Below, piece after piece: positions 2,828 to 36,961 of a DNA stretch of 39,538 nucleotides (positions are counted from its first letter, which is position 1; every line of letters begins with the position of its first letter). Location: NCBI GenBank assembly GCA_036257415.1, contig DATAFP010000192.1, positions 1 through 39,538 of the forward strand. The letters are read 5' to 3'. Below the pieces are notes generated by a model. It had not been told where the DNA came from and searched no databases. It saw nothing but the letters and a program-made list of their open reading frames with translations. A program made the translations under genes and the position numbers. Source of the DNA: Gemmatimonadales bacterium (lineage in GTDB: Bacteria; Gemmatimonadota; Gemmatimonadetes; Gemmatimonadales; GWC2-71-9).

Positions 2828-4500
2828 TGGTTCACGGGTTTGTGGCCGCCTCGCTCCTCGCGCTGGCTGGCGCGCTCCCTGCCCAGGCGCCAGCCGATCT
2901 CGTCTTTCGAGGCGGCCGGATCTACACCGCCAACGACAAGGCGCCGATCGCAGAAGCGGTCGTGGTGCGGGGCGATCGCATCGTCTACGTCGGTGCCGCC
3001 GGCCCCGCCGGCCGATACGTGGGACCCAAGACCCGGGTGGTGGAGCTCGGGGAGCGCATTCTCGTACCAGGGCTCGCCGATGCGCATGCGCATCTCGCCA
3101 GCATCGGGGCGCGCGAGCTCGGCTTCAATCTCGAGGGTACCCGGAGCCTCGCCGATTTCCTCGCTCGCGTCCAGACACGGGTGCGCGGCGCCGAGCTTGG
3201 CACCTGGGTCACCGGCAGGAACTGGATCGAGACGCACTGGCCCGAGCGCCGCTTCCCTACTCGCCAGGACCTCGATCGGGTGGCTCCCGACAACCCGGTC
3301 TTCCTGAAGCGGTCGGACGGTCACGCCGCTGTGGCGAACAGCAAGGCGCTTACAGAAGCGGGTATCACCCGTGGCACCCGCTCACCATTCGGCGGCGAGA
3401 TCCTGCGCGACGACAGAGGCGAGCCGACCGGCATGCTCATCGACAACGCGCAGAACCTGGTTGCGACGCACGTCCCGGCTCCAGCACCCGACGCGCTCGA
3501 CAGCGCCCTCGTGGTCGGCGCCCGGCGCGAGGTGAAGCTCGGCTGGACTCAGCTGCACGACGCGGGCGGCGAGTGGTCCGACGTTGAGCGTATGCGGCGG
3601 CTCTACGCCGACCGGCAGATCAAGCTGCGGGTGTACAAAGCCGTGTTGGGACCGGGCCCGGCCGCCGACACTTTGCTCCTGCGGGGCATGTCGGTAGGCG
3701 AGTTCGGCGGCCGCTTCACCGTCCGAACGATCAAGACATTGCTTGACGGTGCGCTGGGTTCTCGAGGCGCCGCGCTACTCGAGCCGTACAGCGATCGCCC
3801 AGATACTCGCGGCCTGCTGCGGACTCAGCTGGAGCTTTACCGGCCCATGCTTCGCGAGGCGCTTCGACGGGGAATCCAGGTGGAGACTCATGCGATCGGT
3901 GACAGCGCTAACCGCCTCCTTCTCGATCTCTATGCCGAGGCGTTCGATGCGGTGCCGGTACCACAGCGAAAAATTCCCCAGCCACGCTGGCGCGACGAAC
4001 ATACACAAGTGTTGTCACCGGCCGACGTGCCCCGGTTCGCCCAGCTCGGAGTGATCCCCTCCATGCAGCCTTCGCACGCGATAAGCGACCTGCACTTCGC
4101 GGCCACCCGCCTCGGTCCCGATCGGGTGGCCGGCGCGTACGCGTGGCGCAGCCTGCTCCGCACCGGCGTGCCCATCGCCGGGGGGTCGGACGCACCGGTC
4201 GAACGCGGGGAGCCGATGATCGAGTTCTATGCTGCCGTAGCGCGGCGCGACACGACGGGGTTCCAGGGGGCCGACTGGCATCCCGAGCAGGTGGCGACGC
4301 GCGAAGAGGCACTCAAGATGTTCACGGTGTGGCCGGCATATGCGGCCTTCGAGGAGAGCCGGCGCGGAACGATCGACTCGGGCAAGTGGGCCGATCTCAC
4401 GGTGCTCTCGGGGGACATCATGCGGATGCCGGCGCGCGAGATACTCAAGGCGCGTGCCGTCATGACCGTAATCGGCGGCGAGATCGTAGCGGAGGAGTGA
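2827..4500 (+). CDS. Secreted metal-dependent amidohydrolase (Amidohydro_3 / YtcJ-like)
   Basis: Signal-peptide-like N-terminus (FVAASLLALAGALPAQA). PGLADAHAHL metal-binding motif, later HAIGD, and C-terminal GSDAPVE. Start is ATG 2827 overlapping the upstream TGA, or GTG 2821. Confidence 0.8.
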   Translation: MVHGFVAASLLALAGALPAQAPADLVFRGGRIYTANDKAPIAEAVVVRGDRIVYVGAAGPAGRYVGPKTRVVELGERILVPGLADAHAHLASIGARELGFNLEGTRSLADFLARVQTRVRGAELGTWVTGRNWIETHWPERRFPTRQDLDRVAPDNPVFLKRSDGHAAVANSKALTEAGITRGTRSPFGGEILRDDRGEPTGMLIDNAQNLVATHVPAPAPDALDSALVVGARREVKLGWTQLHDAGGEWSDVERMRRLYADRQIKLRVYKAVLGPGPAADTLLLRGMSVGEFGGRFTVRTIKTLLDGALGSRGAALLEPYSDRPDTRGLLRTQLELYRPMLREALRRGIQVETHAIGDSANRLLLDLYAEAFDAVPVPQRKIPQPRWRDEHTQVLSPADVPRFAQLGVIPSMQPSHAISDLHFAATRLGPDRVAGAYAWRSLLRTGVPIAGGSDAPVERGEPMIEFYAAVARRDTTGFQGADWHPEQVATREEALKMFTVWPAYAAFEESRRGTIDSGKWADLTVLSGDIMRMPAREILKARAVMTVIGGEIVAEE

Positions 4501-4501
4501 C

Positions 4502-4969
4502 CTAGAGGCCCACGTCGGCGGGCGGTTTCCAATCCATTCCCAGGATGACGGTGACGTCCACCCGCCGGAGCGTGTCGATATCCGCCACGACCGTCCCGGC
4601 CCCCAGTGCGCCTGCCACGCGGCGGGCGTCGCTTTGATTCACCCCGCGTCGAACGACGATCTTCGTCGTCCGCACCACGCCCTCGCCCTCCCAGTTGCCG
4701 AAGAACACCACGTCCAGGCCTTGGCGGCGGAGAACCCGGGTCGCGCTGCGGGCACGACCCGGCTGACCACTGCCGTTCAACACCTCCACGACGACCCGAT
4801 TGTCGACGGAGGGAATGGCGAACGCGTGGCCGGTGACTCGGTCGGGCGCGCGGCCGCGAAGCGCCAGCGCAGTTGCGGTGGTCGCGACCGCGGCGAGCGC
4901 GATCAGCGCTCCGAAGAGGTGCCGGCGAGCGAGTTCCAAAAGCGCACCGTCGGCTCCGGCAGCGGCCAC
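4502..4969 (-). CDS. LytR_C domain (LytR/CpsA/Psr C-terminal type) membrane-anchored protein
   Basis: The C-terminal VVVEVLNGSGQPGRARSATRVLRRQGLDVVFFGNW...VRRG...ARRVAGALG pattern is typical of LytR_C, preceded by one hydrophobic helix (LFGALIALAAVATTATALAL). There is no ATG, so candidate starts are GTG 4969 or TTG 4939. The 310-aa track ORF is an artefactual upstream extension. Confidence 0.6.
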   Translation of the reverse strand: MAAAGADGALLELARRHLFGALIALAAVATTATALALRGRAPDRVTGHAFAIPSVDNRVVVEVLNGSGQPGRARSATRVLRRQGLDVVFFGNWEGEGVVRTTKIVVRRGVNQSDARRVAGALGAGTVVADIDTLRRVDVTVILGMDWKPPADVGL

Positions 4970-5484
4970 CCAGAGCTCACGATATGGGTGAGTCGGCGCC
5001 GCGCGACCTCGAGCACGACGGCATTCGGCTCCAGAGGAAAGCGACCGGCCAGCTCCGCGCGGGCCTCGTGATCGAAGCGCCGCCCGGGTTCCAGAAAGTC
5101 GGCCGCATACAGCACCCGGCCTACATTGTCCCAGTCGGCACAGCCGAGCGAGTGGTAGCGAACCGCGTCGAGCACGCCTCGGTCCACTTCCCCATCTGCC
5201 GCGGCCCGCGCCGCGCTCGCCGGGCCGTGTCTCAGTTCGACCGGACCGAAGTCCGCCGGTGCCCACCGCTGCAGGTCGGCCGGCGACGCGTCGCGCAGCG
5301 CGTCGTGCAGCCATCCGGCGCGCAGCCAGCGATGCTGCTCCGCCTCCGCCACACCCATCGCTACGGCCCAGGTTTCGATGAGTGCTACCACCCGTTCGAT
5401 GTGGGCGAGCCGCTTGGAAGACACCACGGCCCACGCGGGCAACGTGGGCCGGGTGTCGGGTGAGGTCAGGTGAAACGCGGGCAC
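4903..5484 (-). CDS. HD-superfamily hydrolase, YqeK-like (putative Ap4A hydrolase family)
   Basis: RLAHIERVVALIETWAVAMGV...AGWLHDALRD...AVRYHSLG...VLYAADFLEPGRRF matches the YqeK HD-domain pattern. Start is uncertain: GTG 5484 was chosen because it lies just downstream of the panD stop. Confidence 0.6.
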   Translation of the reverse strand: MPAFHLTSPDTRPTLPAWAVVSSKRLAHIERVVALIETWAVAMGVAEAEQHRWLRAGWLHDALRDASPADLQRWAPADFGPVELRHGPASAARAAADGEVDRGVLDAVRYHSLGCADWDNVGRVLYAADFLEPGRRFDHEARAELAGRFPLEPNAVVLEVARRRLTHIVSSGWPLPEPTVRFWNSLAGTSSER

Positions 5485-5497
5485 TGGCGTGCCGCGG

Positions 5498-5869
5498 TCA
5501 ACTCTCCGCGCGCAGCGGGGGCCGCACGATGCGGTTCCGCTCGTCCACGAAGACGATGCGGGGCACATGACGGCGTGCTTCCGCGTCGGCATACATCCCG
5601 TACGAGATCAGGATCACGAGGTCGCCCGGATGGCCCAGACGGGCGGCCGCCCCGTTGAGCTGAATCTGGCCGGAGCCGCGCCGCCCCGGGATCACGTAGG
5701 TGGTGAACCGCGAGCCGTTGTTCACGTTGACGACCTGCACTTCCTCGTAGGTCACCAGATCCGCCGCATCCAGCAGGTCTTCGTCCACGGTAAGCGAGCC
5801 CTCGTAGTGCAGATCGGCCGAGGTGATCGTGGCACGGTGAATCTTGGACTTCATGAGGTGCCGCTGCAT
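5498..5869 (-). CDS. panD: Aspartate 1-decarboxylase
   Basis: [29 protein letters not shown] carries the canonical N-terminus and the YEGS self-cleavage (pyruvoyl) site. 123 aa. GGAG lies between the panC stop and this ATG. Confidence 0.93.
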
Positions 5870-5877
5870 GCCGCTCC

Positions 5878-6723
5878 TCACCGGAGGATCAGGTTGTCGA
5901 TGAGCCTCGTCCGTCCCACCCGCACTGCCGCTGCCAGGATCGTGCCCGGCACGGCCTCGTCGACTCGCTGCAGGTGCTCCGGATCGATTGCGGCAATATA
6001 GTCGGCACGAAGAGCCGGAGCAGCCGCGATTTCGCGGGCGACCACGGCTTCGAGCGCCGGTCCGGCGCGCTCCCCGGTTCGCCATGCTACCGCAGCGGCG
6101 CGGAGCCCGCGGTTCAACGCGAGCGCGTCCTGCCGCTCGTTGGGGCCGAGGTAGGAGTTGCGGCTGCTGAGTGCGAGGCCGTCTTCCTCCCGGACGGTCG
6201 GCACCACGGAGAGCTCGACCGGCAGGTCGAGATCGCGCACCATCCGTCGCACCAGTGTGACCTGCTGGATGTCCTTCTGCCCGAAACAGGCGACCTCGGG
6301 TTCGACGAGGTGGAAGAGTTTGGCGACGACCGTGAGCACGCCGGCGAAATGGCCCGGACGCGCCGCGCCTTCCCACCGGTCCCCGGCCGCGCCCGGCACG
6401 ATCCGGGTGTCAGCGCCGGGCGGATACATCGTGGCGACGGTGGGAACGAACAGGAGGTCGACCCTGCGGTCGCGCACCAACGCGCGGTCGCGGTTGAGGT
6501 CACGAGGATAGCGGTCGAAATCCTCGCCGGGGCCGAACTGTAGCGGATTGACGAAGATGCTCATCACTACCAGCTCAGCGCGGCGACGGGCGTCGTCCAC
6601 CAGCGCGAGGTGCCCCGCGTGCAGGAAGCCCATCGTGGGCACCAGCGCAACACGCCGTCCCGCCGCCCGGGCCTCGCGCCGCCAGGCCCTGAGCGCGGGC
6701 ACCTCGGCGACTTCCTCCATCAC
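5878..6723 (-). CDS. panC: Pantoate-beta-alanine ligase
   Basis: [15 protein letters not shown] (HxGH motif), [11 protein letters not shown], and family resemblance along the full length. Confidence 0.93.
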
Positions 6724-7529
6724 TCGAAGCTGTGCTCGGCGCCCGGGTATCGTCCGGCCCGCACCTCGTCGGTGAAGGTCTGCGCTGCACGCCGTACCTC
6801 TTCCGCCAGCTCGGCGTAGCGCTTGAGGAAGCGGGGCCGGAAGCTCTCGTTGAGACCCAGCATGTCGTACAGCACGAGCACCTGGCCGTCGCAGCCCGGC
6901 CCGGCGCCGATCCCAATGGTCGGAATGGCGAGTCCTTCCGAGATCCGGCGCGCCAGCGTGGCCGGCACGAGCTCGAGCACCAACCCGAATGCACCCGCCT
7001 CCTCCAGTGCGCGAGCGTCGTTTGCCAGTCGCTCCGCGGCATCGGCGCTCCGGCCCTGCACTCGATAGCCGCCGAGCGCGTGCACCGACTGAGGCGTGAG
7101 CCCGAGATGGCCCATGACCGGAATGCCGCGGTCCACCAACGCGCGCACGGTGGGGGCCATGGGCGCGCCGCCCTCCAGCTTCACGCCTTGGGCTCCGGTC
7201 TCCTGCATGACGCGACCCGCATTGCGGATCGCCTCCTCGATCGATACCTGGTAGCTCAGGAACGGCAGGTCGACCAGCACGAGGGATTCGGGACTTCCCC
7301 GACGGACCGCCGACGTATGGTAGATGAGTTGATCGAGCGTCGCGCTGAGCGTGCTTTCCCGCCCGGCCACGACCTGGTTCACCGAATCGCCGACCAGGAG
7401 CACGTCCACCTCGGGCGCGATGATGCGAGCGAAGGTCGCGTCGTAACAGGTGAGCACGGCGATCCTGCGCCCCGCAGCCTTCATGGCGACGAGGTCCAGC
7501 GGCGTCCGCGGCTGCGAATCAGGCGACAT
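6720..7529 (-). CDS. panB: 3-methyl-2-oxobutanoate hydroxymethyltransferase
   Basis: LTCYDATFA, VLLVGDS, VKLEGG and GHLGLTPQS motifs. The stop overlaps the panC start (6720..6723). Confidence 0.93.
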   Translation of the reverse strand: MSPDSQPRTPLDLVAMKAAGRRIAVLTCYDATFARIIAPEVDVLLVGDSVNQVVAGRESTLSATLDQLIYHTSAVRRGSPESLVLVDLPFLSYQVSIEEAIRNAGRVMQETGAQGVKLEGGAPMAPTVRALVDRGIPVMGHLGLTPQSVHALGGYRVQGRSADAAERLANDARALEEAGAFGLVLELVPATLARRISEGLAIPTIGIGAGPGCDGQVLVLYDMLGLNESFRPRFLKRYAELAEEVRRAAQTFTDEVRAGRYPGAEHSFE

Positions 7530-7944
7530 GGCGCTCCAATTCGGCCAGCTCCCGGAGCCAGAAGTCGCGGTTGGGGAGCTCGGGATGGGGGACCACGAGA
7601 TCGGGATCGTTCACCCGCCGGTCACCGTACTTGACGATGTCCAGATCGAGGGTTCGGGATCCCCACCGGGAGGCCCGGGTTCTGCCCCGGCCTGCCTCGA
7701 TCTCCTGACACCCGCGAAGCAGGGCGCGCGGCGTGAGCCCGGTCTCGAGCAATACCATCTGGTTCAGATAGAGCGGCTGCGCGAGCTCCCCGAGCGGCAC
7801 GGTCTCCTCGATGCTGGATTCGGCCACCAGCGTTGTGTCGGGCAGCGCCGCCAGGCCTGCCCGCCCGGCGGCCAGGTGCCCGGCGCGATCCCCAAGATTG
7901 CTGCCGAGTGCTACAAACGCCCGCTCCCGGCGCACCGCGGTCAC
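7519..7944 (-). CDS. folK: 2-amino-4-hydroxy-6-hydroxymethyldihydropteridine pyrophosphokinase
   Basis: [24 protein letters not shown] and [12 protein letters not shown] are classic HPPK motifs. The GTG start forms a GTGA overlap with the upstream stop (7941..7944). Confidence 0.9.
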
Positions 7945-10019
7945 GTGGTGACGGCGAAGTGTCGCGCGATGCGCTGCAGCCGCGACGCGACGCCCTCCAG
8001 CTCAGCAATAGCGTGCTCCAGCTCCACCTGCCCCGACGCGGCTTCGGCCGCCTGCGCCGCCAGCGCGTCGGTCTGGGAGCGGGTGTGGGCCGATACCGCG
8101 GCAACGCGCTCGATCCGCTGGGTGAGGTCCTCGAAAGCCGCCTGCTGGGCCGCCGCGGCGGTCGCGATCGTGGCGGCCCGCCGGCCGGCATCGCCGGTGG
8201 CCTCGACAATGGCCGCGAGTGCCTCCCCCGCTGCCGCGCTCAGCTCCTCGACGTTGGCCACTGCTTCCCGGCCTCGGTGCATCTGTTTCGTCACCGTCGC
8301 GACTTGCGACCCGACCTCGGCAAGGAGTGCGGCGCTCTCGCGCGTTGCCTCGAGGCTCTGCACCGCGAGCGTTCGAACCTCGTCCGCGACGACCGCGAAC
8401 CCGCGGCCGTCCCTGCCCGCTCGCGCGGCCTCGATAGCAGCGTTCAACGCGATCAGGTTGGTGAGGTCGGCAATCTCACGGATGGCGGCAATGATAGCGC
8501 CGACCCGCCGAGTCACGTCGCCCAGCGCTGCTACCTGGGCCGAGCTGTCTGACACAAACTGTTTGAGCTCGACCAGCCGCCCGACGGCTCCGGCAATCAC
8601 TTTTCGGTTTCGCTCGGCCACCTCGGATGCGTGGAGGCTGGCCTCCGCGGATCGGCGGCCGTCCGCGGCCATGTCGCGGGATACCCGGGCCAGGGCGGTC
8701 GTCGCATCCAGTCCGCTGGCGGCGGACGAGCTCTGCTCGGCCATGCCGTCTCGCATTTGTTGAGAGGCAGAGGCAAGAGCGGCCGCCGTACTGCGCAGTG
8801 CGTCGGTCACCCGTGCGAGCCCCGCCACCTGGGCGCTGATCTGGTCCACCGTCCCAACCAGCGGCCGCCGCAGCTCGGCGATGTGAATCGCAGTCGCGAC
8901 GTGGCTGGCGATCGTCGCCAGTGTCGTGAGGTCCCGGGAGCCGTAGGAGTTTCGCTTGTGATGCTCCAGCTCGATGGTCCCGAGGGTCTCATCGCCGAAT
9001 CTGATCGGGTAGATCACGATGCAGCGCACATCCGGGATCGGATCGAGCGCGGCCTCGCGGGAGGTGTCCCGGATCACGACAGGCACGCCGTCCGCGATGG
9101 ACCGGCGTCGAAACCCGTCCAGCTGCGCCGCCGGCTGGCCCCGGCCCGGACGTCCGATCCCCGCGCGATAGGCCAGCACCGTGCCATCCTCGGTAGTGCG
9201 GTGGACGCGGAAGTCCCCCCAATCGAGCAGCCGGTGCGACAGCCGCTCGATGTGCACGAAGGACTCCGACAGCTGGGCGTTGCCCAACAGCGTGCTCTCC
9301 AGCTGGTGGACCTTGTTCAGGTCCTCGGCGGCGATCGCCTCTTCCAGAATCCGCCGGGTGAGCAGACCCAATGCGAGCAGCACGAAGGCCACGGCGAGCC
9401 ACCCGAATGGATCGAGCAGCAACACCGTGCCCACTGCGATGGCCGTCGCGCCGAGCGTGAGCAGGTAGGCGATGATCTCCCACCGCAGTACGAACAACTG
9501 CTCGACGTGCTCCAGCTTTCCCCGGAACAGAAGAGTGAAATAGAACAGCCCTCGGCTGGTGACGAAGTACGCGCCGGTGAGGGCGAATGCCGCGGGCAGC
9601 AGGTCCACCGACGGCCGGGTTACTCCGGTCGCGCGGATCACCGCGACGTAGAAGCCGTACGCCGCCACGAACGCGATCACCTCGCGGCCGGCGTTGATCC
9701 AGGCCGCCCGCCACACCTTCCGAAGGAAGACGCCGTCGGCCAGCAGGGTGCCGACGAAGAGCGCCACGGCCACCGGCGAGCAGCCGAGAACCAGCGCACC
9801 GCCTAGCGCGACGATGCCGCTCTGCGTGAGATAGGAGTACTTGCTGAGCCGGACCGGCCCCAGGCGGAGCAACACGGTGAGCGCCACCAGCACCGCGGTC
9901 GCGGTGGGATAGTCGAGCCATCGGCGGTCTACCGCGGCAACCAGCAGCGTGACGAGCGTGCCGCCGACGCTGAGCGCTCTCGCGTACGTTCCGAGCACCC
10001 GGCCGACGGCGATCGTCAT
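7941..10019 (-). CDS. Chemoreceptor-like protein: multi-pass membrane N-terminus + GAF domain + methyl-accepting chemotaxis (MCP) signalling domain
   Basis: The first ~230 aa hold about 7-8 hydrophobic helices. A GAF-like segment follows ([21 protein letters not shown]...[17 protein letters not shown]). The C-terminus carries the near-invariant MCP hairpin tip, [39 protein letters not shown] recognised no HAMP segment. ATGA overlap with the trpA stop (10016..10019). Confidence 0.8.
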
Positions 10020-10834
10020 CGAACGACCTCCACCTCATCGACGGCTTCGCGGAGGCCGCGAAGGAACGACGCCGCGCGCCGCACGCCTCCCTCGCCAAGC
10101 GCGTCCACCAGTGCGCTCCCGACGACGACGCCGTCCGCGAGTCGCGCCACCGAGCGGGCCTGGTCCGGCGTGGAGATGCCGAATCCCACCGCGATCGGCA
10201 ACGGCGTTGCGCCCCGCACCCGTGCAACCGAGCCCGGAAGATCGGGGGCCAGCGCGGTACTCGCTCCGGTCACGCCGAGCCGGGCCACCAGGTAGATGAA
10301 CCCGCCGGCTCCCTGCACGGCTTCGGTCAGGCGCTCCGGACGGGTCGTCGGAGCGATCAGCCGGATGAGATCGAGCGGGCTTTGTGCCACCGTGGATTCC
10401 ACGGCCGCATCGCTCCCCGCCGGGAGATCGGTCAGCAAGAGGCCGGCGACGCCGACCTCCGACGCGTCGCGGAGAAATCGGTCGACGCCGTACCGGAGGA
10501 TCGGATTGAGATAGCTGAACACCACGATCGGCCGGCGTAGGTCGGCGGTCGCGATCAGCTCGAGGGTGCGAGGCAGCGTCATCCCGTGCTGCAAGGCCTC
10601 GAACGTCGAACGCTGGATGGTGGGCCCGTCCGCCAGCGGGTCGCTGAACGGCACTCCCACCTCGATGATGTCCGACACCTCCGCCGCGGCCCGGAGCGCC
10701 GCGACGCTCGTCTCGGGCGTGGGATAACCGGCGGTCAGGTATGGGATCAGCGCCGTGCGACCGTCCGCGCGCAGCGCCGCCCAGGCGCGGGCGAGGGCGG
10801 AATCAGACAAAGTAGTCGCTGACGGTGAGCCCAT
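10016..10834 (-). CDS. trpA: Tryptophan synthase alpha chain
   Basis: [28 protein letters not shown] and [13 protein letters not shown] motifs. Start is ATG 10834 (or TTG 10810). Either one overlaps the end of the upstream HD-GYP gene. Confidence 0.9.
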
Positions 10835-12236
10835 AACGGGTCGGGCTGGTGACTTTGACGATCGACCTCGCATAGCCGCTGTCCGCCTGGTCGGCCAGGT
10901 TCACCAGCGTCCCTGGAGGGGCGACCATGCCGCCGTCCGCATCCATCACGACACGGACGAGCGGGCGATTGAGGTGCTGTCCATCGGGATTCGGTCCGGC
11001 GACGATCGCCACCTCGAACGTATCCAGGATGACACAGGTCCCGACCGGATAGACGCCCATCAGATTGATGAGCGCTTTCACCAGGATGCGATCGTATCCC
11101 CGCTTGGGGTTATCCCACATCTCCCGTAGCACCTGGTCAGGCTCGATTGGAACAGTCTGATAGCTCCGGCGCGTGGTAGCCGCATCGAACCCGTCGGCCA
11201 CGGCGACGATGCGCGAAAAGATGCCCAGGTCCCGCGGGCGTACCGATCGCGGGTAGCCCGTCAGGTCCGTCTTCATGTGGTGCTCGTACGCAACGAGGAT
11301 GGAGCGGTAGGGGATCTCGTCGTAGCCCCGCAACCCGAACAGCGTGAGCGCGCCCAGCCAGGGGTGCGCCTGCACCACGCGCCATTCGTTCTCGTCGAGG
11401 CCGCTGGTCTTGTTGAGGATGTCGATCGGAATGCGCGCCTTGCCGACATCATGCAGCAGAGCTGTCATGCCGAGGTCGTAGAGCTGCAGCTTGCTGAACC
11501 CGAGCTTCTTGCCGAGCGCCACCGCGAAGATGCACACGTTCACCGAGTGGGTGAAGGTGTACTCGTCGTAATCCCGAAGCGTGGTGAGGCCCATCAGCGA
11601 GGTCTCGTTGTTCAACACCTGGTCGACGATCATCTGTACCGCGCGCTTCACTCGCTTGACGCTGGTGGTCCGGCCCAGCCGGATGCCGGTGATCACCTCC
11701 TTGGTGACCGCCACACCCTGGGAGTAGGTGCGCTTGGCCACCTCGCGCGCCTCCTCCGACTCGAGGCCCTCCTGGTGCGGGAGCGCCCGCTCCACCTCGA
11801 GGGTCTTGACCCCCGCTTCAGTCAGCCGGTGCTGCAACTCGACCAACGGATCCTCCACCCCGCGCCCCGCGAGGCTGAGCAGCAGGCTCAGGAAGATTTG
11901 CCAGTCGCGCCGCTCCGCGCCGCGGTGCGCCCGCACAGCGCCGATCTCGAAGGACCGGAAGACCGCGAGGATGTGGCTGAACGAGGCGTAGTTGTCGAGC
12001 TCGAGCCGGAGGCGGGTCGAGTTGACGAAGATGAAATCGCCGGCGAGCCGCACCTCCAAATCGCCCTCCGACGTGAGCAGGTCAGTGACCGTCACGTGCA
12101 GGTCGTCGAGCGCGTGCTGCACGGTGGCGTTCTCGACCGGATAGAGCTTGAGGCTTCGAAGCGCCGCGTAAAGTTGCAGCAGCAATCCGCGCCCGGCCTG
12201 GCGCAGGCGGGCGTCGACGTCCTGACTTTCGGTCAC
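10803..12236 (-). CDS. HD-GYP domain protein (putative c-di-GMP phosphodiesterase) with an uncharacterised N-terminal domain
   Basis: HSVNVCIFAVALG...ALLHDVGKARIP...VAYEHHMKTDLTGYPRS...AVADGFDAATTRRSYQ is the HD-GYP signature. The start is assigned to a GTG forming a GTGA overlap with the upstream stop (12233..12236). The 650-aa track ORF extends upstream through an Arg/Gly/Pro-rich stretch overlapping the HEAT gene, which I treat as an artefact. Confidence 0.8.
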   Translation of the reverse strand: MTESQDVDARLRQAGRGLLLQLYAALRSLKLYPVENATVQHALDDLHVTVTDLLTSEGDLEVRLAGDFIFVNSTRLRLELDNYASFSHILAVFRSFEIGAVRAHRGAERRDWQIFLSLLLSLAGRGVEDPLVELQHRLTEAGVKTLEVERALPHQEGLESEEAREVAKRTYSQGVAVTKEVITGIRLGRTTSVKRVKRAVQMIVDQVLNNETSLMGLTTLRDYDEYTFTHSVNVCIFAVALGKKLGFSKLQLYDLGMTALLHDVGKARIPIDILNKTSGLDENEWRVVQAHPWLGALTLFGLRGYDEIPYRSILVAYEHHMKTDLTGYPRSVRPRDLGIFSRIVAVADGFDAATTRRSYQTVPIEPDQVLREMWDNPKRGYDRILVKALINLMGVYPVGTCVILDTFEVAIVAGPNPDGQHLNRPLVRVVMDADGGMVAPPGTLVNLADQADSGYARSIVKVTSPTRYGLTVSDYFV

Positions 12237-13915
12237 GCAGCGGACTCCCGAAGGGCGCGGTTCACGGCATTCCGGACCACGAGGTCCTTGTCGTCGGCGG
12301 CGTTGGACAGAACTTCCCGTGCTTCCGCCGTGCGGATCTTGCCGAGCGCGATGGCCGCGCACGCGCGCAGGTCCGAGGGCTGGATGAGTTTCAGCAGGCC
12401 GCGGGGCAGCAGCATGCCAGACAGCGTCTTGAGCGCCGACGGACCGGCGATCGCGCCGTAGGCTTCGAAGAACGCCATCTTCTCGGTGAGGTCCATTTCC
12501 TTCACGCCCTTCCCCAACACAACTGCTTCGACCCGCTTGAGCGCGCCCTTGTAGCCGCGCGCTCCGGCGGCCCGTACCGCCGCCAGGCGGACACCGCGGT
12601 CGGCATCGTCCACCGCGCGCTCCAGCTGGCCCATCGCGCCAGGCGTGCCGACCTTTTCGAGCGCCTGCACAGCCGCCAGCCGAACGTTGGCATCGGCGTG
12701 GCCGAGCAGCTCGCCCAAGCCGGGCACCGCCGGTTGGAGGGCGAGGCGGCCGCACAGCGCCACCACGGTTGGAAGCGCGTCGCTCGGCGGCTCCCGCAAG
12801 AGTCGCAGCACCTCGGTCCCGTGGGCGGCTGCAAGCCGATCGACGTTGGCCTCGACGAGTTTGCGCACCGCGGGGGCGGCCACCCGCGGGAGGGCTTCAA
12901 TCAAGGCGCCCAGCGCGCTCGACCGGAGCTCGCTGAACAGCGCGGTGACCTCGCTTTCGCCCGCGAGCTGTGGCGCCTCGTCGAGCGCCTGCACCAGCTG
13001 TCCCACGATGGCCGGCTGGCTGAGCTGGGTTTCCAACGACTCGAGGCGCCGGCGGATATCGGGCGGAAGCTCGGCGGTTCGCGAAAGCACCAGCCGGGCA
13101 TCCCGGATCACCGTCGCCACGGTACGGAACTCGCCCTTGCTCAGCAGGTTCGGGAACAGCGTCTCAAGAATGGTCAGGATCTCGCCTCGCACCGTGCCGT
13201 CGGACTGCAGCTCCAGCAAGTCGAAGACGGCAGTCAGCGCGGACAAGCGGGCATCACGCGCGTACTCCGCCTGCACTTCACTCGCCAGCCGGTTGATCTC
13301 CTCCTCGTCCAGGAAGTAGAGCGTGGCGTCGAAGTCCTCGAGATCCACGATGCCCTTAGGCCGCGCCGGCGCCTCCTCACGCAGCTGCTCCCGGCGGGCC
13401 TCGGCGGCGGCGGCGTCGCCGCCGCCCGGCGCCCGCGAACCCTCGATAGCATCGCCTTCGGTGAGGAAGTCGATGAAGTGATACTGGATGGCGACGAACT
13501 CCTGTTCCCACAGCAGGGTCATCAGGTCGTCGCCGGCCTCCGAAGGGAGAAACCGCACACGGTTCACGGTCTCGAGGAACCGCGTCAGCTCGTCTTCCTC
13601 GGCGCCCTTCTGGATCGTGAGCACCCGCATGCCATCCTTGAACAGCGTCCAGGCCAGCGATTCGCTCTTGTTGATCTGCTGGTAGACGATCTCCTGCTCC
13701 CAGAGGATCTCGGTCTCGGCGATCGTCAGCACAAGCTCATCGACCGCGGCCCAGATAGGGCCGAACGCGCCTCGGGCGTTCTGAATGGCGCGCTGGTAGA
13801 TGGGATTGTTGGGGAGATACATCTGGAAGGCGCGGAGCGCCTTGACCATCGTCTGCAGCAGCTCCGCGACCTGGCTGGGGACGAGGAACGCCGGCGACGG
13901 CGCGCCTGCCGTCAC
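12233..13915 (-). CDS. HEAT-repeat protein (PBS-lyase/HEAT_2-like C-terminal repeats) with an uncharacterised N-terminal domain
   Basis: C-terminal repeats [16 protein letters not shown] / [18 protein letters not shown] / [14 protein letters not shown] / [14 protein letters not shown]. The N-terminal ~110 aa resemble the N-terminus of the next gene. The GTG start forms a GTGA overlap with the trpB stop (13912..13915). Confidence 0.7.
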
Positions 13916-15129
13916 GGCGCGCGCCCCAGCAACGCGGCGACGTGCGCCACGTCCTTGTCACCGCGGCCGCTCAGGCAGATCAGCACCGGCGTGTCGGCGT
14001 GCCACCGCCCGCGATTCGCCCGCACCCACGCGAACGCGTGCGCGGTCTCGAGCGCGGGGATGATGCCTTCGGTCCGGCACACGACCTGAAAAGCCTCGAG
14101 CGCATCGGCGTCGCTCACCGAGTCGTAGCGCACTCGTCCGGTGTCGCGGAGCCAGCTATGCTCCGGGCCCACGCCGGGGTAGTCGAGACCGGCCGAAACG
14201 GAATGCGCCGGTGACACCTGGCCGTCCGCGTCCTGCAAGAGGTAGCTGTAGCTGCCGTGCAGGACGCCGGGCCGACCGGCGCCAAGCGTGGCGCTGTGGT
14301 GCCCCGTCGCGATCCCCTCCCCCGCCGCCTCCACTCCGACCAGCTCGACCTCGTTGTCGTCGAGAAAGGCGCTGAAGGTACCGATCGCGTTCGACCCGCC
14401 GCCGACGCAGGCGACAACCGCCCCCGGCAGCCGGTTGCAGCGCTCCAGGACCTGGACCCGTGCTTCGCGACCGATCACCGATTGAAAATCACGCACCATC
14501 CGCGGATAAGGATCGGGGCCGACGACCGAGCCGATGATGTAGTGGGTGGTGGGAACGTTCGTGACCCAGTCGCGGAGCGCTTCGTTGGTGGCGTCCTTGA
14601 GCGTCCGGGTCCCCGAGGAGACCGGCACGACCGTCGCGCCCAGCAATTCCATGCGGTAGACGTTCAGCCGCTGCCGAACCACGTCCTCGGCGCCCATGTA
14701 CACCACGCACTCGAGGCCAAAGCGGGCACAGACAGTCGCGGTTGCCACGCCGTGCTGTCCCGCGCCGGTCTCTGCGATAATGCGACGTTTGCCCATCCGG
14801 AGCGCGAGCAGCACCTGCCCCACGGTGTTATTGATCTTGTGCGCACCGGTGTGGTTGAGATCCTCGCGCTTGAGCAGGACTCGAGCGCCGACCTCGCCGC
14901 CGAAACGCGGTGCGTCGGTGAGCGGCGTCGGACGCCCGACGTACTCGCGGAGCATCCGGTCGAGCTCAGCCCAGAACGATGGATCGACGCGAGCGCGGTC
15001 GTAGAGCGCCGAGAGCTCGTCCAGCGCCGCGACGAGCGTCTCGGGCACGTAGCGACCCCCGTAGGGACCGAACCGTCCGTGTATCGCCCGCTCAGGCGAC
15101 AGCGCTGCGCCCACGTGCGGCCTCCACAA
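13912..15129 (-). CDS. trpB: Tryptophan synthase beta chain
   Basis: [31 protein letters not shown] (PLP lysine), GGGSNAIG and [11 protein letters not shown]. Confidence 0.95.
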
Positions 15130-15733
15130 AACGCGCGATCTTGGTCTCGTCCTTGATGCCGGGGAGGGTTTCCACGCCGGAACTTACATCAACCACGTCC
15201 GGCGCCACGAGTCCCACCACCGACGCCACCGTGTCCGGTGCAAGCCCGCCTGCGAGCACCATCCGGCGCGTGGTCAGGCGGGCCCGCGCCGAGCCGGCGA
15301 GCGAGAGGGACAACGATTGGCCGGAGCCGCCCTCCGCGCGCGGCACCCTCGGCTCTACCAACACCGCGTCCACGTTCCAGGGCTCGTCGAGCCGCGCCAG
15401 ATCCGCCTCGCCGGCCAGTCGCACCACCCGCCACACCACGAGACCCGATTCGTGGAGTGCCGCAGCATCGCTCGCCGTGTAGGCGCCGTGCAGCTGCGCG
15501 CCCGCGAGGCCGGCCTGGAGGCACACATCCACGATCGTCGGGAGTGTCTCGCCACCGAACACGCCGAGCACCGGACAATCTCCCGAGGCGGCGACGATGG
15601 CGGCCGCGCGCGCGACGCCGACCACTCGCGGTCCGCTCGCGAACACGATGCCCAGCCAGTCGGCACCGGCCGCGCGTGCCGCTTCGGCATCGCGCGGGCG
15701 GGTAAGCCCGCAGATCTTCACTTCAACGGCCAT
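15092..15733 (-). CDS. trpF: N-(5'-phosphoribosyl)anthranilate isomerase
   Basis: [17 protein letters not shown]-terminus, LAGGL and DVSSGVE motifs. It overlaps the trpB start by 38 nt and the trpC end by 11 nt. Confidence 0.88.
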
Positions 15734-16511
15734 GGCGCCTCACGCTCGCGAGCGCTCGCGTGGATGCGGCGGGGTCGGCCGAGCCAGACAGCGCCGTGCC
15801 CACCAGCACGGCATCCGCCCCAGCCGACGCAGCCCGCTCGACATCCGCGACCGTTGCCATCCCGCTTTCCGCGACCACGATCCGATCCGCCGGGACCTCA
15901 CGGATCAGCCTCCACGCGCTATCCACGTCGATCCGGAATGTGTCCAGATCTCTGCTGTTCACGCCGATCACCCGCGCGTCGGCGTTGAGCGCGCCGTCGA
16001 GCTCGCGCTCGGTGTGAACCTCGACCAGCGAATCGAGGCCGGCATCCTTCGCAACCGCCTGCAGCTCGGAAAGGCGGGCTGGTGTCAGTGCTCGGACGAT
16101 GAGCAGGATCGCGGCCGCTCCGGACGCGCGGGCCTCGAACACCTGAGACTCATCCAGGATGAAGTCCTTCCGAAGCACCGGCACGCCTACCCGCGCAACC
16201 ACCTGCTCCAGGTCGCCGATCGAGCCGCCAAAAAAAGGCCGGTCTGTCAGGACCGAGATGGCGGCGGCGCCGCCGTCGGCGTAGGCGTCCGCCTGCCTCG
16301 CCGGGTCGAGGTCAGCCTGGATGAGTCCGCTCGACGGCGACCGACGCTTCACTTCCGCGATCAATGCCACCCGCCCCCCGCGAAGCGCGGTGGCGAACGA
16401 TCGCGGTACCGGCGCACCGGCCGCGGCCCGTTCCAGCTCCGCTCGCCGGGACCGAAGCCCGTCGATCGAGCGGCGGGTGGACTCGAGGATTTCCGCCAGG
16501 GACGGCCCCAT
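15723..16511 (-). CDS. trpC: Indole-3-glycerol phosphate synthase
   Basis: LIAEVKRRSPSSG, ISVLTD, LRKDFI, LVEVH, IGVNSRDL and AESG motifs. ATG 16511 (MGPSLAEILE) is preferred over the longer track start. Confidence 0.9.
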   Translation of the reverse strand: MGPSLAEILESTRRSIDGLRSRRAELERAAAGAPVPRSFATALRGGRVALIAEVKRRSPSSGLIQADLDPARQADAYADGGAAAISVLTDRPFFGGSIGDLEQVVARVGVPVLRKDFILDESQVFEARASGAAAILLIVRALTPARLSELQAVAKDAGLDSLVEVHTERELDGALNADARVIGVNSRDLDTFRIDVDSAWRLIREVPADRIVVAESGMATVADVERAASAGADAVLVGTALSGSADPAASTRALASVRRHGR

Positions 16512-16517
16512 CTTGCC

Positions 16518-16559
16518 CTTCGGCGCGTCTTCGGGTATCGTTATTCGGGCTCTATTCGG
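16518..16559. promoter_or_regulatory. Four phased TTCGG direct repeats in the trpC-lexA divergent region (candidate operator)
   Basis: CTTCGG (16518), CTTCGGG (16529), ATTCGGG (16543) and ATTCGG (16554). This gives two xTTC-N7-xTTC pairs with 11-bp periodicity, located 30-70 nt upstream of the lexA ATG and directly upstream of the trpC ATG. Confidence 0.3.
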
Positions 16560-16588
16560 TCGCACAACGCACTCGGGAGATGCGGGCA

Positions 16589-17200
16589 ATGCCGCTCACC
16601 AGACGACAGAGCGAAATCCTCAGTTACCTGCAGAACCACATCCAGGAGCAAGGATTCGCGCCCAGCTTCGAGGAGATCGCCGAACGGTTCGGTTTCCAGT
16701 CTCTCGCCACCGTGCACGAGCATCTCACCAATCTCGAGCGCAAGGGGTACATCCGCCGCTCGTACAACGAGAGCCGCGCCATCGAGGTGTTGCCGCCGCG
16801 CGGTACCGCGCTGGCCACCGAGATCCCCTTGCTCGGTAAGGTGGCGGCCGGCACGCCCATCGAGGCACCGATGCACCAGGAAACTCTGGCAGTGCCGGAG
16901 CAGATGCTGCCCCGCCGCGGGCCCAATTTCGCGTTGCGGGTGTCGGGGTCGTCCATGATCGACGATCACATCGTCGATGGCGACTACGTCGTCGTCCACG
17001 GCAAGCAGACGGCGGAGAACGGCGAGCTGGTCATCGCGCTGGTGAACGGCTCCGAGGCGACTGTCAAACGGTTCTACCGGGAGTCGGGCGGTTGGATCCG
17101 GCTTCAACCGGCGAATGCCAGCATGCAGCCGATGCGCTTCCAGGAGCGCGACGTTCTCATCCAGGGCATCGTCGTCGGCGTCATCCGGAAGTACCAGTGA
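16589..17200 (+). CDS. lexA: LexA repressor (SOS regulator, S24 peptidase)
   Basis: MPLTRRQSEILSYLQ...GFAPSFEEIA winged-helix N-terminus. Ala-Gly cleavage site (KVAAGTPIEA), catalytic Ser (SGSSMID) and Lys (VKRFY). GGGAGA lies 8 nt upstream of ATG 16589. ATG 16580 is an alternative start. Confidence 0.92.
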   Translation: MPLTRRQSEILSYLQNHIQEQGFAPSFEEIAERFGFQSLATVHEHLTNLERKGYIRRSYNESRAIEVLPPRGTALATEIPLLGKVAAGTPIEAPMHQETLAVPEQMLPRRGPNFALRVSGSSMIDDHIVDGDYVVVHGKQTAENGELVIALVNGSEATVKRFYRESGGWIRLQPANASMQPMRFQERDVLIQGIVVGVIRKYQ

Positions 17201-32852: not shown

Positions 32853-33347
32853 ATGACGCAGCCCCTCGTGGGGATAGTAATGGGCAGCGAATCCGACTGG
32901 TCCGTGATGCAGGCGGCGGCGCGCCGCCTGGTGCAGTTCAACGTGGCCCACGAGGCCCGCGTCGTGTCCGCACATCGAACCCCGGACCTGCTTTACCAGT
33001 ACGCAGGCGAGGCGGTCTCGCGCGGACTTCGCTGCATCATCGCCGGCGCCGGCGGGGCCGCCCATCTGCCGGGTATGCTGGCCGCCCGCACCTCCATCCC
33101 GGTGCTCGGCGTCCCAATTCCCACCAAACATCTGCAGGGCCTCGACTCGCTGTTGTCGATCGTGCAGATGCCGGCCGGCGTCCCGGTCGCCACCTTTGCC
33201 ATCGGCGAATCCGGGGCGGCCAACGCGGCACTTTTCGCCGTTGCGTTGCTGGCCGCTGGCGACCCCCCACTCGCCCGCAGGCTGGAAGACTTTCGCACGG
33301 CCGAGACCGAACGCGTGCTTCGCCTCAGACTGCCCGATCCGGCGTGA
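32853..33347 (+). CDS. purE: N5-carboxyaminoimidazole ribonucleotide mutase
   Basis: VGIVMGSESDW, VVSAHRTPD, AGGAAHLPGM and GVPIP motifs. ATG 32853. Confidence 0.93.
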   Translation: MTQPLVGIVMGSESDWSVMQAAARRLVQFNVAHEARVVSAHRTPDLLYQYAGEAVSRGLRCIIAGAGGAAHLPGMLAARTSIPVLGVPIPTKHLQGLDSLLSIVQMPAGVPVATFAIGESGAANAALFAVALLAAGDPPLARRLEDFRTAETERVLRLRLPDPA

Positions 33348-34483
33348 TCCTGCCCGGCGCCACCCTCGGCGTGCTCGGCGGCGGGCAGCTGGGACGGATG
33401 TTCACCATGCGGGCTCGGGAAATGGGCTATCGAGTCATCGTGCTGGAGCCTGACGCCGGTAGCCCGGCCGGCGCGGTCGCGGACCGACACATCCAGGCAG
33501 CATACGACGATCCCGCCGCGCTCGACTTGCTCGCCTCGGAATGCGCCGCCATCACGATTGAATTCGAGAACGTTCCGGCCGGCGCTCTGCAACGACTTGC
33601 TCAAACGATTCCGGTGCGGCCGTCCGCGGAAGCGGTTTCCGTGGCGCAGGACCGGATTCGCGAGAAGACCTTCCTCCGCGACCATGGCTTCGGAATGGCG
33701 CCGTTCTGCCCGGTGACAAACGGCGACGAGCTGGCGGCGGCGTTTGAGTCGGTGGGCGCTCCGGCGCTCCTCAAGACCAGCCGCCTCGGCTACGACGGCA
33801 AGGGCCAGCTGCCCATCGGAACGCTCGCGGACCTCGGGACGGCCTTCGGCAACTTCGGCGGAGTTCCGTGCGTACTGGAGCAAAGGCTCGATCTCGAGGC
33901 CGAGCTCTCGGTGGTCCTGGTGCGCGGCACCGACGGCGGCACAGTGCCGTTTCCGGCCGGAGAGAATTGTCATCGAGCCGGCATTCTGGACACCACCGTC
34001 GTACCGGCGCGGATCGGCCACGCGCTCGCCACCGAGGCCGCGCAGCTGGCCGCAGCAGTGGCGGCGCGGCTCGAATATGTAGGCGTGCTGGCCGTCGAGC
34101 TGTTTGTGGCCCGCGGCGGGAGGCTGTTCGTTAACGAGATCGCGCCGCGGCCGCACAATTCCGGGCACTACACGCTGGACGCCTGCGTGACCGATCAATT
34201 CGAGCAACAGGTGCGGGCGCTGTGCGAGCTGCCACTGGGGTCGCCCGCACTGCTCTCGCCGGTCGCGATGGTCAACGTGCTCGGCGACGTGTGGGCCGGC
34301 GGCCCGCCTCGATGGGATCGAGCTCTGGCGCTACCGGGCGTGAAGCTGCACCTGTACGGCAAGGCCGAGCCGCGGCCCGGCCGGAAGATGGGTCACCTGA
34401 ACTGCATGGCCGGCACGGCGGATGATGCTTTGGCGTTGGCGCGCCGCGCCTACGCCGGGCTGCTTGACCACCCTTCACCCTGA
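33344..34483 (+). CDS. purK: N5-carboxyaminoimidazole ribonucleotide synthase (ATP-grasp)
   Basis: LGVLGGGQLGRM, ITIEFENV, VNEIAPRPHNSGH and KMGHL motifs. GTGA overlap with the purE stop (33344..33347). Confidence 0.92.
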   Translation: MILPGATLGVLGGGQLGRMFTMRAREMGYRVIVLEPDAGSPAGAVADRHIQAAYDDPAALDLLASECAAITIEFENVPAGALQRLAQTIPVRPSAEAVSVAQDRIREKTFLRDHGFGMAPFCPVTNGDELAAAFESVGAPALLKTSRLGYDGKGQLPIGTLADLGTAFGNFGGVPCVLEQRLDLEAELSVVLVRGTDGGTVPFPAGENCHRAGILDTTVVPARIGHALATEAAQLAAAVAARLEYVGVLAVELFVARGGRLFVNEIAPRPHNSGHYTLDACVTDQFEQQVRALCELPLGSPALLSPVAMVNVLGDVWAGGPPRWDRALALPGVKLHLYGKAEPRPGRKMGHLNCMAGTADDALALARRAYAGLLDHPSP

Positions 34484-36565: not shown

Positions 36566-36598
36566 ACCGGGCGGAATGTCGGTGACATCCCGCCCGGT
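36566..36598 (-). terminator. Stem-loop immediately 3' of ssrA (candidate intrinsic terminator)
   Basis: ACCGGGCGGGATGT / ACATTCCGCCCGGT arms with one mismatch and a 5-nt loop. It starts 3 nt after the tmRNA 3' end and is followed on the reverse strand by CGGCTTTATCC, which is only a weak U-tract. Confidence 0.5.
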
Positions 36599-36600
36599 GA

Positions 36601-36961
36601 TGGAGGCGCAGGGAATCGAACCCTGGTCCGAGTGAGCATCCGAAACCGCGTCTACGCGCGTAGGCCCGATTTTGTGCCTTTTCCGCTGGCAGGCATCGAA
36701 CCGGCCCACCTGCGGAGCAGCCCCCCTGCTCTCGCCGGCTCGCGGTGGGGCACCGCGTCCAGCCAGCCCGACTTTGCGATACGGTGGGGACGCCTCAGGC
36801 GGGCTTCCGTCACCGCAGGTGCGTCAGCGAGCTGAGCTCAGCTTACGCAGCCAGTGCCAGTTCAGAGTTGGCAGTTAGTACGTTCCAGACGGTTTTACCA
36901 GGTGCCTGGACCTGGGCACGCAACGATTCCCTCAACAAACCCGTCGAAGCCGATCGCCCCC
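36601..36961 (-). ncRNA. ssrA: tmRNA (SsrA), 361 nt mature-length estimate
   Basis: The reverse strand begins GGGGGCGATCGGCTTCGACGGG and ends GGTTCGATTCCCTGCGCCTCCA. The 5'/3' ends form a 7-bp acceptor stem with a G3-U pair (alanine identity), and there is a T-arm GGTTCGATTCC. The internal tag frame GCC AAC TCT GAA CTG GCA CTG GCT GCG TAA (36843..36872) encodes ANSELALAA. The 3' CCA is not encoded: the discriminator A is followed by TCACC. Confidence 0.93.

Follow-up and report, generated by a model that had tools for sequence, protein, structure and literature searches.

A HEAT-repeat/HD-GYP gene pair lodged between trpB and trpA in the Gemmatimonadota and retained where the trp genes are missing

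Background

The genes for the two subunits of tryptophan synthase, trpB and trpA, are a textbook case of an adjacent, translationally coupled pair whose products form a complex. In a 39,538-nt stretch of DNA from a member of the Gemmatimonadales (the whole stretch is called the window here), this canonical adjacency is absent: 3113 nt lie between trpB and trpA, with two genes encoding a HEAT-repeat protein and a protein with an HD-GYP domain. The same two genes are found together across the phylum, both in trp operons and at loci from which the trp genes are missing. With moderate confidence, we read the pair as an autonomous signalling cassette that came to lie between trpB and trpA early, that is expressed with a housekeeping super-operon, and that owes its fixed place to operon compaction, not to a role in tryptophan synthesis.

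Inserts at this junction have precedents. Burkholderia and Flavobacterium both have non-trp genes between trpB and trpA according to Xie et al. (2003), cited in Kagan et al. (2008; PMC2395257), and to that extent the near-universal adjacency assumed in a first-pass annotation of the window, made from the sequence alone, was too strong a premise. The same source leaves the role of such inserts between "morons" and helpers, and describes a proteobacterial truA...trpFBA-accD-folC arrangement where split trpFBA operons are bordered by truA and folate genes (PMC2395257); here, truA and folK likewise flank the trp genes. The window belongs with the cases of Xie et al. (2003) and Kagan et al. (2008) in having same-strand, lineage-conserved non-trp genes inside a trp operon. 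It differs from the Burkholderia and Flavobacterium inserts in that the inserted material is a putative two-gene HD-GYP signalling cassette, present phylum-wide, with overlapping stop and start codons on both sides, and in that this cassette outlives trp genes that appear to have been deleted. Literature searches turned up nothing published about a HEAT/HD-GYP pair or the Gemmatimonadota trp operon, in keeping with the first-pass annotation, which knew of no described system of this kind. Because two foreign genes are kept between trpB and trpA, translation of TrpA must cross two unrelated frames, and the phylum-wide split offers a natural test of the limits that gene order and coupling set on complex assembly.

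The regulation of HD-GYP enzymes is less well understood than that of EAL and GGDEF proteins. The known enzymes RpfG, PmGH (PDB 4mcw), PA4781 (4r8z), and V-cGAP3 (5z7c) have the HD_5 domain, the H/HD/H/HH/D ligands, and the GYP motif in common with the protein described here; the nearest to it by sequence are V-cGAP3, which is specific for 3'3'-cGAMP, and PmGH, a c-di-GMP enzyme. It differs from them in its putative N-terminal sensor, an undescribed domain rather than REC, PAS, or GAF; in the duplication of that domain in a separately encoded HEAT partner; and in an extra conserved C-terminal region. The partner resembles NblB and CpcE, bacterial alpha-solenoids of the HEAT/PBS-lyase type, in having a HEAT_2 solenoid, with weak NCBIfam similarity, and its C-terminal half is structurally similar in Foldseek comparisons to designed alphaRep proteins, as well as to PP2A-A. 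Unlike NblB, CpcE, or alphaRep, it has an N-terminal domain in common with an HD-GYP enzyme and is always encoded directly upstream of that enzyme. An enzyme and a HEAT-solenoid partner that are always encoded together and have a novel N-terminal domain in common make up an undescribed two-protein HD-GYP architecture; if the partner does form a heteromer with the enzyme, this would add a new principle of regulation for these enzymes.

Gene Order and Overlaps in the Window

The operon runs on the minus strand from a region shared with the divergent gene lexA. In the list below, evidence is given in parentheses (ORF, open reading frame; AF2, AlphaFold2 model).

16580-17200, plus strand: lexA (translation; tblastn; LexA_DNA_bind and Peptidase_S24 domains in homologous loci)
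15723-16511 or 16589, minus strand: trpC, with ATG 16511 the likely start (ORF and translation; annotated as indole-3-glycerol phosphate synthase in homologous loci; spacing)
15092-15733, minus strand: trpF, with trpC the proximal genes of the operon (ORF and translation; annotated as phosphoribosylanthranilate isomerase in homologous loci; spacing)
13912-15129, minus strand: trpB, tryptophan synthase beta (TIGR00263, PALP)
12233-13915, minus strand: HEAT gene, 560 aa (HEAT_2, AF2, Foldseek)
10803-12236, minus strand: HD-GYP gene, 477 aa (HD_5; PDB sequence and Foldseek matches)
10016-10810 or 10834, minus strand: trpA, tryptophan synthase alpha (TIGR00262; junction comparison in 58 loci)
7941-10019, minus strand: GAF/MCP membrane protein gene, 692 aa (MCPsignal, GAF_2)
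5498-7944, minus strand: folK, panB, panC, and panD, the distal operon genes (Pfam HPPK, Pantoate_transf, Pantoate_ligase, and Asp_decarbox; spacing)

The order is thus trpC-trpF-trpB-HEAT-HD-GYP-trpA-(GAF/MCP)-folK-panBCD, with nearly every gene overlapping its neighbor. Both tryptophan synthase subunits are bona fide: TrpB, of the TrpB1 type, scores 606.8 bits against a TIGR00263 cut-off of 392, and TrpA 225.5 bits against a TIGR00262 cut-off of 102.

The stop codon of trpB (TGA, 13914-13912) shares a GTGA with the GTG start of the HEAT gene (13915-13913), and the HEAT stop (TGA, 12235-12233) shares another with the GTG start of the HD-GYP gene (12236-12234). Both overlaps (13912-13915 and 12233-12236) had been given exactly in the first-pass annotation, which was also right in placing the HD-GYP stop (10805-10803) inside the 5' end of trpA and in its two candidate trpA starts, TTG 10810 (TTGTCTGA, an 8-nt overlap with the HD-GYP gene) and ATG 10834 (a 32-nt overlap). 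TTG 10810 is the likely start, with ATG 10834 as the alternative; a TTG at -8 (TTGTCTGA) is found in most of 58 loci compared and is often the sole candidate. Taking as the start of each gene the start codon nearest the tblastn-projected one, which is a heuristic and not an annotated start, the 4-nt overlap is seen between trpB and HEAT in 42 of 47 loci, between HEAT and HD-GYP in 62 of 76, and between trpA and the GAF/MCP gene in 43 of 48, and an overlap of 8 to 32 nt between HD-GYP and trpA in 58 of 58.

Genes for subunits of heteromeric complexes show an enrichment in short overlaps (PMC10666635), and the first-pass annotation proposed that the pair is co-transcribed and stoichiometrically co-translated with tryptophan synthase. 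However, overlaps are found at 8 of 10 minus-strand operon junctions and at 13 of the 15 junctions between same-strand genes in this region, including those between unrelated neighbors (trpA/GAF-MCP, GAF-MCP/folK, folK/panB, and htrA/purB). With genes in this region overlapping as a rule, a shared start and stop says little about a specific stoichiometric relation. A promoter and terminator scan gave one promoter-like site against 0.4 expected and seven terminator-like sites against 4.4 expected, no excess in either case and none at the junctions, and an Rfam scan of the operon found no leader, riboswitch, or other element. Together with the conserved overlaps and tight packing, this makes co-transcription and translational coupling well supported by the sequence, as had been proposed, but neither is specific to the junctions between trp genes and insert, and the stoichiometric part of the proposal gains little support from them.

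Conservation and Contexts of the Pair

Loci from 80 species-level Gemmatimonadales genomes, fetched with the HD-GYP protein, were scanned by tblastn. About 58 of the 80 have trpB-HEAT-HD-GYP-trpA where the contig reaches far enough, most commonly in the order trpD, lexA, trpC-F-B-HEAT-HD-GYP-trpA-GAF/MCP-folK-panB. The HEAT gene lies directly upstream of the HD-GYP gene, and most often overlaps it by 4 nt, in every locus that spans both, 76 in the Gemmatimonadales and 11 more distant ones, the latter in eight contexts. Five deep branches of the HEAT tree (loci L081, L086, L087, L091, and L092) are also trp-embedded, with HEAT proteins 32-39% identical to that of the window in the three measured (L081, L086, and L087). 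The synteny check that the first-pass annotation had suggested therefore shows the arrangement to be no one-off. The cassette's place between trpB and trpA, in an operon starting at the divergent lexA region, dates back to an early point in the history of the phylum. The more distant contexts are as follows.

L081, L087, and L092: trpB-pair-trpA without a GAF/MCP gene
L086: trpB-pair
L091 (GCA_040961615.1), 3996-12549: trpC-trpB-pair-trpA-GAF/MCP-folB-folK; trpB follows trpC without trpF between, and folB precedes folK
L088, 7581-11089: REC-pair; the HEAT start comes 1 nt after the end of a single-domain response regulator gene
L083, 1322-6780: a diverged pair, then a Ser/Thr protein kinase gene
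L084/L085 and L090: pair alone

Searching 1.8 billion representative proteins with a profile gave 667 clusters at E <= 1e-30; among the best 150 of these, nearly all complete proteins match over their full length. Every family member that carries a name belongs to the Gemmatimonadota. One apparent fusion was encountered, an 866-aa ORF with both HEAT_2 and HD_5 (P0469; L089, 428-3028). It was rejected as a true (Rosetta-stone) fusion, and is probably an indel artefact because the long-read contig has 2x coverage and the ORF is shorter than both proteins combined.

Loss of trp Genes around the Pair

By tblastn, about 17 Gemmatimonadales loci lack exactly three segments, trpD, trpCFB, and trpA. 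They keep psd-purC-purB-htrA-truA-lexA followed by HEAT-HD-GYP-GAF/MCP-folK-panBCD, with order and orientation unchanged. In neighbor-joining trees without support values, these loci fall at three or more separate places: a large Gemmatimonas-like clade; L063/L070, beside the trp-containing L061; and L007/L008, nested in a trp-containing crown. In the HD-GYP tree, loci with the trp-embedded order lie to either side of the midpoint root. In L070, where trpCFB is gone, a relic directly upstream of the HEAT GTG (6149-6199) encodes LSGRGAKDVAQGAALTG, the C-terminal motif of TrpB.

Because the deep branches are trp-embedded and the order occurs on both sides of the HD-GYP root, the trp-embedded order is best taken as ancestral. 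The kept neighbors, the trpB relic in L070, and the retention upstream of the CCGAA array described below point to deletion rather than insertion, so that the trp genes appear to have been deleted repeatedly. A history starting from an ancestral trp-less order would need genes of a single pathway to have entered by three separate insertions, each at an exact position, and was rejected because the deep branches are trp-embedded and because of the relic. If so, the clean, repeated removal of trp genes alone clearly illustrates how a pathway can be lost from within a conserved super-operon.

Neither protein evolves faster after trp loss than in trp-containing sisters. Identities of HD-GYP proteins to outgroups were 66.9-67.5% for trp-less loci and 67.4% for the trp-containing sister in one comparison, and 72.5-72.9% and 73.2-75.5%, respectively, in a second; for the HEAT protein, they were 57.8-58.3% and 57.8-60.0%. 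One of the trp-less loci, L007 (JBLMWC010000006.1), comes from a record titled as a "Bacillota bacterium" metagenome-assembled genome; it has full Gemmatimonadales synteny and an HD-GYP protein 77% identical to that of the window, and the contig is probably mis-binned or mislabelled.

The Two Proteins and Their Shared N-Terminal Domain

Pfam profiles place both proteins above family cut-offs, as the first-pass annotation had anticipated: the HEAT protein matches HEAT_2 (PF13646) at 52.8 bits against 27.7, which identifies it as a HEAT-repeat protein, and the HD-GYP protein matches HD_5 (PF13487) at 61.4 bits against 27.2, over aa 221-383. Their domains, all on the minus strand, are located as follows.

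13478-13870: N-domain of the HEAT protein (aa 16-146), from hhalign to the HD-GYP N-domain
11790-12194: N-domain of the HD-GYP protein (aa 15-149), with motif AALRSLKLYPVENATVQHA (hhalign; AF2)
11088-11576: HD-GYP catalytic domain (aa 221-383; HD_5, ligand alignment)
10806-11060: C-terminal region of the HD-GYP protein (aa 393-477), highly conserved

The two N-terminal domains, about 135 aa each, are homologous as judged by profile comparison. With alignments of 275 HEAT and 86 HD-GYP sequences, distant pairs included, hhalign matched aa 16-146 of the HEAT protein to aa 15-149 of the HD-GYP protein over 131 aligned columns, with a probability of 97.3% and E = 2.7e-11. Shallower alignments were merely suggestive (E = 0.012 and 8.8e-4), and pairwise BLASTP between the two proteins found nothing (E = 2.4). 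Both domains have a motif of the form ALR-x3-(L/M)Y-(x)P-x-N. As ALRxLKLYPxEN, it is kept in all trp-embedded pairs and those derived from them and is lost in the divergent standalone ones; in the clearly standalone pairs (L084, L088, and L090), N-domain identity is 22-24% and YP-EN has disappeared. The AF2 model of the HD-GYP protein is well defined over aa 10-150 (pLDDT, the model's per-residue confidence, 80-94), and the order of helices and strands is broadly alike in the two N-domains, that of the HEAT protein being modelled with low confidence. Permissive Pfam scans gave no credible match to either N-domain (the N-terminal 160 aa of the HD-GYP protein included), an N-domain profile matched no PDB sequence (best E = 1.3), and Foldseek with the whole models returned matches for the HEAT solenoid and the HD-GYP domain only, none for the N-domain.

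From the shared domain and the constant adjacency of the genes, we infer that the HEAT and HD-GYP proteins form a heteromer. The shared domain, in predicting a heteromeric HD-GYP regulator, is the most useful product of this analysis.

Beyond its N-domain, the HEAT protein consists of a helical middle part, for which a permissive Pfam scan gave no credible match, and a HEAT/alpha-solenoid C-terminal half. In its AF2 model, residues from about 220 to 560 form helical repeats (pLDDT 80-96), and Foldseek matches this model to alphaRep, PP2A-A, and beta-catenin, at E = 1e-5 to 1e-6 for the first two; the C-terminal half can be modelled with confidence as an alpha-solenoid. Against the NCBIfam equivalog cut-offs for NblB and CpcE, it reaches just 26.2 bits of 300 and 20.8 of 330, respectively, so far below that it is an orthologue of neither.

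In the HD-GYP protein, the N-domain is followed by a linker helix, the catalytic domain, and, at the C-terminus, a stretch of 85 conserved aa. The ligands H230, H262-D263, H291, H319-H320, and D348 and the motif G327-Y328-P329 are invariant in 28 homologues and align with those of the active enzymes V-cGAP3 and PmGH. The best sequence match in the PDB is V-cGAP3 (5z7c, E = 4e-24), followed by PmGH (4mcw, E = 1e-16); Foldseek with the model gives DvhD, Bd1817, and PmGH, in agreement with the family assignment. The intact motifs predict an active cyclic-dinucleotide phosphodiesterase. No REC domain was found in a Pfam scan, and the protein is not of the RpfG type. Its last 85 residues are among its most conserved (YPVGTCVILDT...IVKVT...DYFV); a permissive Pfam scan gave no credible match to them, and AF2 models them at a pLDDT of about 30.

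Possible Roles of the Pair

The insert is best read as a two-gene signalling cassette, to date seen only in the Gemmatimonadota, in which one gene encodes the N-domain with a HEAT solenoid and the other the N-domain with an HD-GYP domain whose catalytic motifs are intact and the conserved C-terminal region. Through their paralogous N-domains, the two proteins might associate or receive the same input, and the solenoid could scaffold or regulate an enzyme that would hydrolyze c-di-GMP or a related cyclic dinucleotide. Lying in an operon of overlapping genes, the cassette presumably shares the co-transcription and translational coupling of the other operon genes, and ribosomes probably have to complete the HD-GYP gene for TrpA to be translated. 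Its position would then reflect shared expression and a frozen gene order, and deletion of the trp genes would have left it at the same promoter, under unchanged constraint. Signalling genes do recur beside it: REC in L088, the Ser/Thr kinase in L083, and GAF/MCP.

Several points weigh against this interpretation. The trpB-pair-trpA order persists over very deep divergence, which in operons usually indicates a functional link, and expression of trpA is tied mechanically to that of the HD-GYP gene, within whose coding sequence trpA starts. The loss of trp genes is known at this locus only, and the pair may act in trans with trp genes elsewhere. The very divergent standalone pairs of L084, L088, and L090 could be paralogues instead of orthologues. 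The heteromer, the activity of the enzyme, and its substrate are deductions from sequence, and the AF2 models are of moderate quality, with mean pLDDT of 72 and 62.

The first-pass annotation had suggested that the pair binds tryptophan synthase or links indole and tryptophan flux to second-messenger signalling. A tie of this kind, in which the pair would bind the alpha2beta2 complex or turn indole, serine, or tryptophan flux into a c-di-GMP signal, its position having been selected for stoichiometric co-translation, we now consider quite unlikely. It would account for the phylum-wide trpB-HEAT-HD-GYP-trpA order, for the conserved overlapping junctions with the trpA start buried in the HD-GYP gene, and for the retention of ALRxLKLYPxEN in trp-embedded and derived pairs and its loss in divergent standalone ones; genes inserted in trp operons may also aid the pathway (Kagan et al., PMC2395257). 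Yet at least three independent lineages appear to have dropped the trp genes of the locus with the pair intact and, from the identities above, equally constrained. Moreover, truA, lexA, folK, and panBCD are conserved just as well and are unrelated to tryptophan, overlaps are generic in this operon, and Pfam and NCBIfam scans found no domain known for binding indole or tryptophan in either protein. Homologues of the pair in contexts unrelated to trp genes, which the first-pass annotation had itself named as counting against its suggestion, do exist to some extent, in the form of the roughly 17 trp-less loci and the diverged pairs beside REC or Ser/Thr kinase genes. The more specific idea of a dedicated tryptophan-pathway sensor, whose N-domains would bind indole, serine, tryptophan, or TrpAB and in which obligatory co-translation between TrpB and TrpA would adjust the cyclic-dinucleotide level to the output of tryptophan synthase, is likewise doubtful. 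If it were true, amino-acid biosynthesis would be wired directly to second-messenger signalling, and the trp-less lineages would have trp genes elsewhere or sense exogenous indole or tryptophan.

The GAF/MCP gene downstream of trpA raises a different possibility, that in this genome HEAT, HD-GYP, and GAF/MCP form a three-part unit in which the receptor controls the phosphodiesterase or the reverse, with trpA merely lodged inside it. The gene has 4-nt overlaps with both trpA and folK, neighbors the pair in most Gemmatimonadales loci and in L091, and in 19 trp-less loci follows HD-GYP directly, at -23 to +31 nt. Its product matches MCPsignal (PF00015; 112 bits against a cut-off of 34.6) and GAF_2 (36.9 bits), with about five hydrophobic segments in its first 220 aa and a canonical MCP tip sequence. 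MCP-domain proteins such as BdlA are reported to control c-di-GMP phosphodiesterases in Pseudomonas, and the BdlA-DipA/RbdA systems likewise combine an MCP-domain protein with a c-di-GMP phosphodiesterase outside a che operon; no che genes were found among the scanned ORFs of the window, up to about 37 kb. Here, however, the enzyme belongs to the HD-GYP and not the EAL type, the MCP protein sits in the membrane and has a GAF domain, and its link to the pair is not universal. It is absent beside the pair in L059, L065, L081, L087, L092, and all standalone pairs, and so probably joined later and is dispensable for the pair, while folK and panB are linked to the pair just as well. A three-part unit is plausible for this genome, if rather unlikely. 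The possibility that the HD-GYP protein is not an enzyme, and is instead a degenerate cyclic-dinucleotide receptor or adaptor with the HEAT protein as its output, draws on the structural matches to DvhD (9rbz), a receptor-type protein with bound c-di-GMP, and to the inactive Bd1817. Since the catalytic domain is poorly modelled (pLDDT about 60), these ranks are weak evidence. The canonical metal ligands (H, HD, H, HH, D) and the GYP motif do not vary within the family and align with those of active V-cGAP3 and PmGH, while DvhD has SQ in place of HD; with catalytic motifs this intact, a non-catalytic role is very improbable.

GAF-domain genes were also seen elsewhere at these loci. In L087 (2459-3601) and L092 (171-1481), both without a GAF/MCP gene after trpA, a gene for a soluble GAF-domain protein lies directly upstream of trpD with an overlap of ~10 nt. 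Such genes seem to be recurrent companions of the trp/HEAT/HD-GYP locus.

The lexA-trpC Intergenic Region

The divergent region between lexA and trpC, about 70 nt long, contains a small array of repeats.

16519-16559, minus strand: four CCGAA direct repeats, spaced by 11, 14, and 11 nt, forming two CCGAA-N6-CCGAA units

The window as a whole has two matches to this pattern, against 0.14 expected. It is in the same place in all 58 loci that hold an intergenic region of the lexA-trpC type (62 have a match), and across the fetched loci is almost confined to the lexA-proximal intergenic region. The array is also present in the distant L081, L087, L091, and L092, and in trp-less loci, where lexA adjoins the HEAT gene. 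This makes the region a candidate operator/promoter region for the operon. The array could be a direct-repeat LexA box, similar to the alphaproteobacterial GAAC-N7-GAAC type. If so, the trp/HD-GYP/pan operon would adjoin an SOS-regulated promoter. The gene lexA itself, on the opposite strand, separates trpD from the other trp genes, and the order truA(-), trpD, lexA(-), trpC is kept across the phylum (L081, L087, L091, and L092).

Other Features of the Window

Two features lie well away from the operon, both on the minus strand. A 404-aa ORF (32993-34207) has no Pfam match at E <= 0.001, and its pattern of G+C at third codon positions fits coding sequence. A tmRNA gene (36598-36961) scores 125 bits in Rfam, with a tag peptide predicted by ARAGORN as ANSELALAA.

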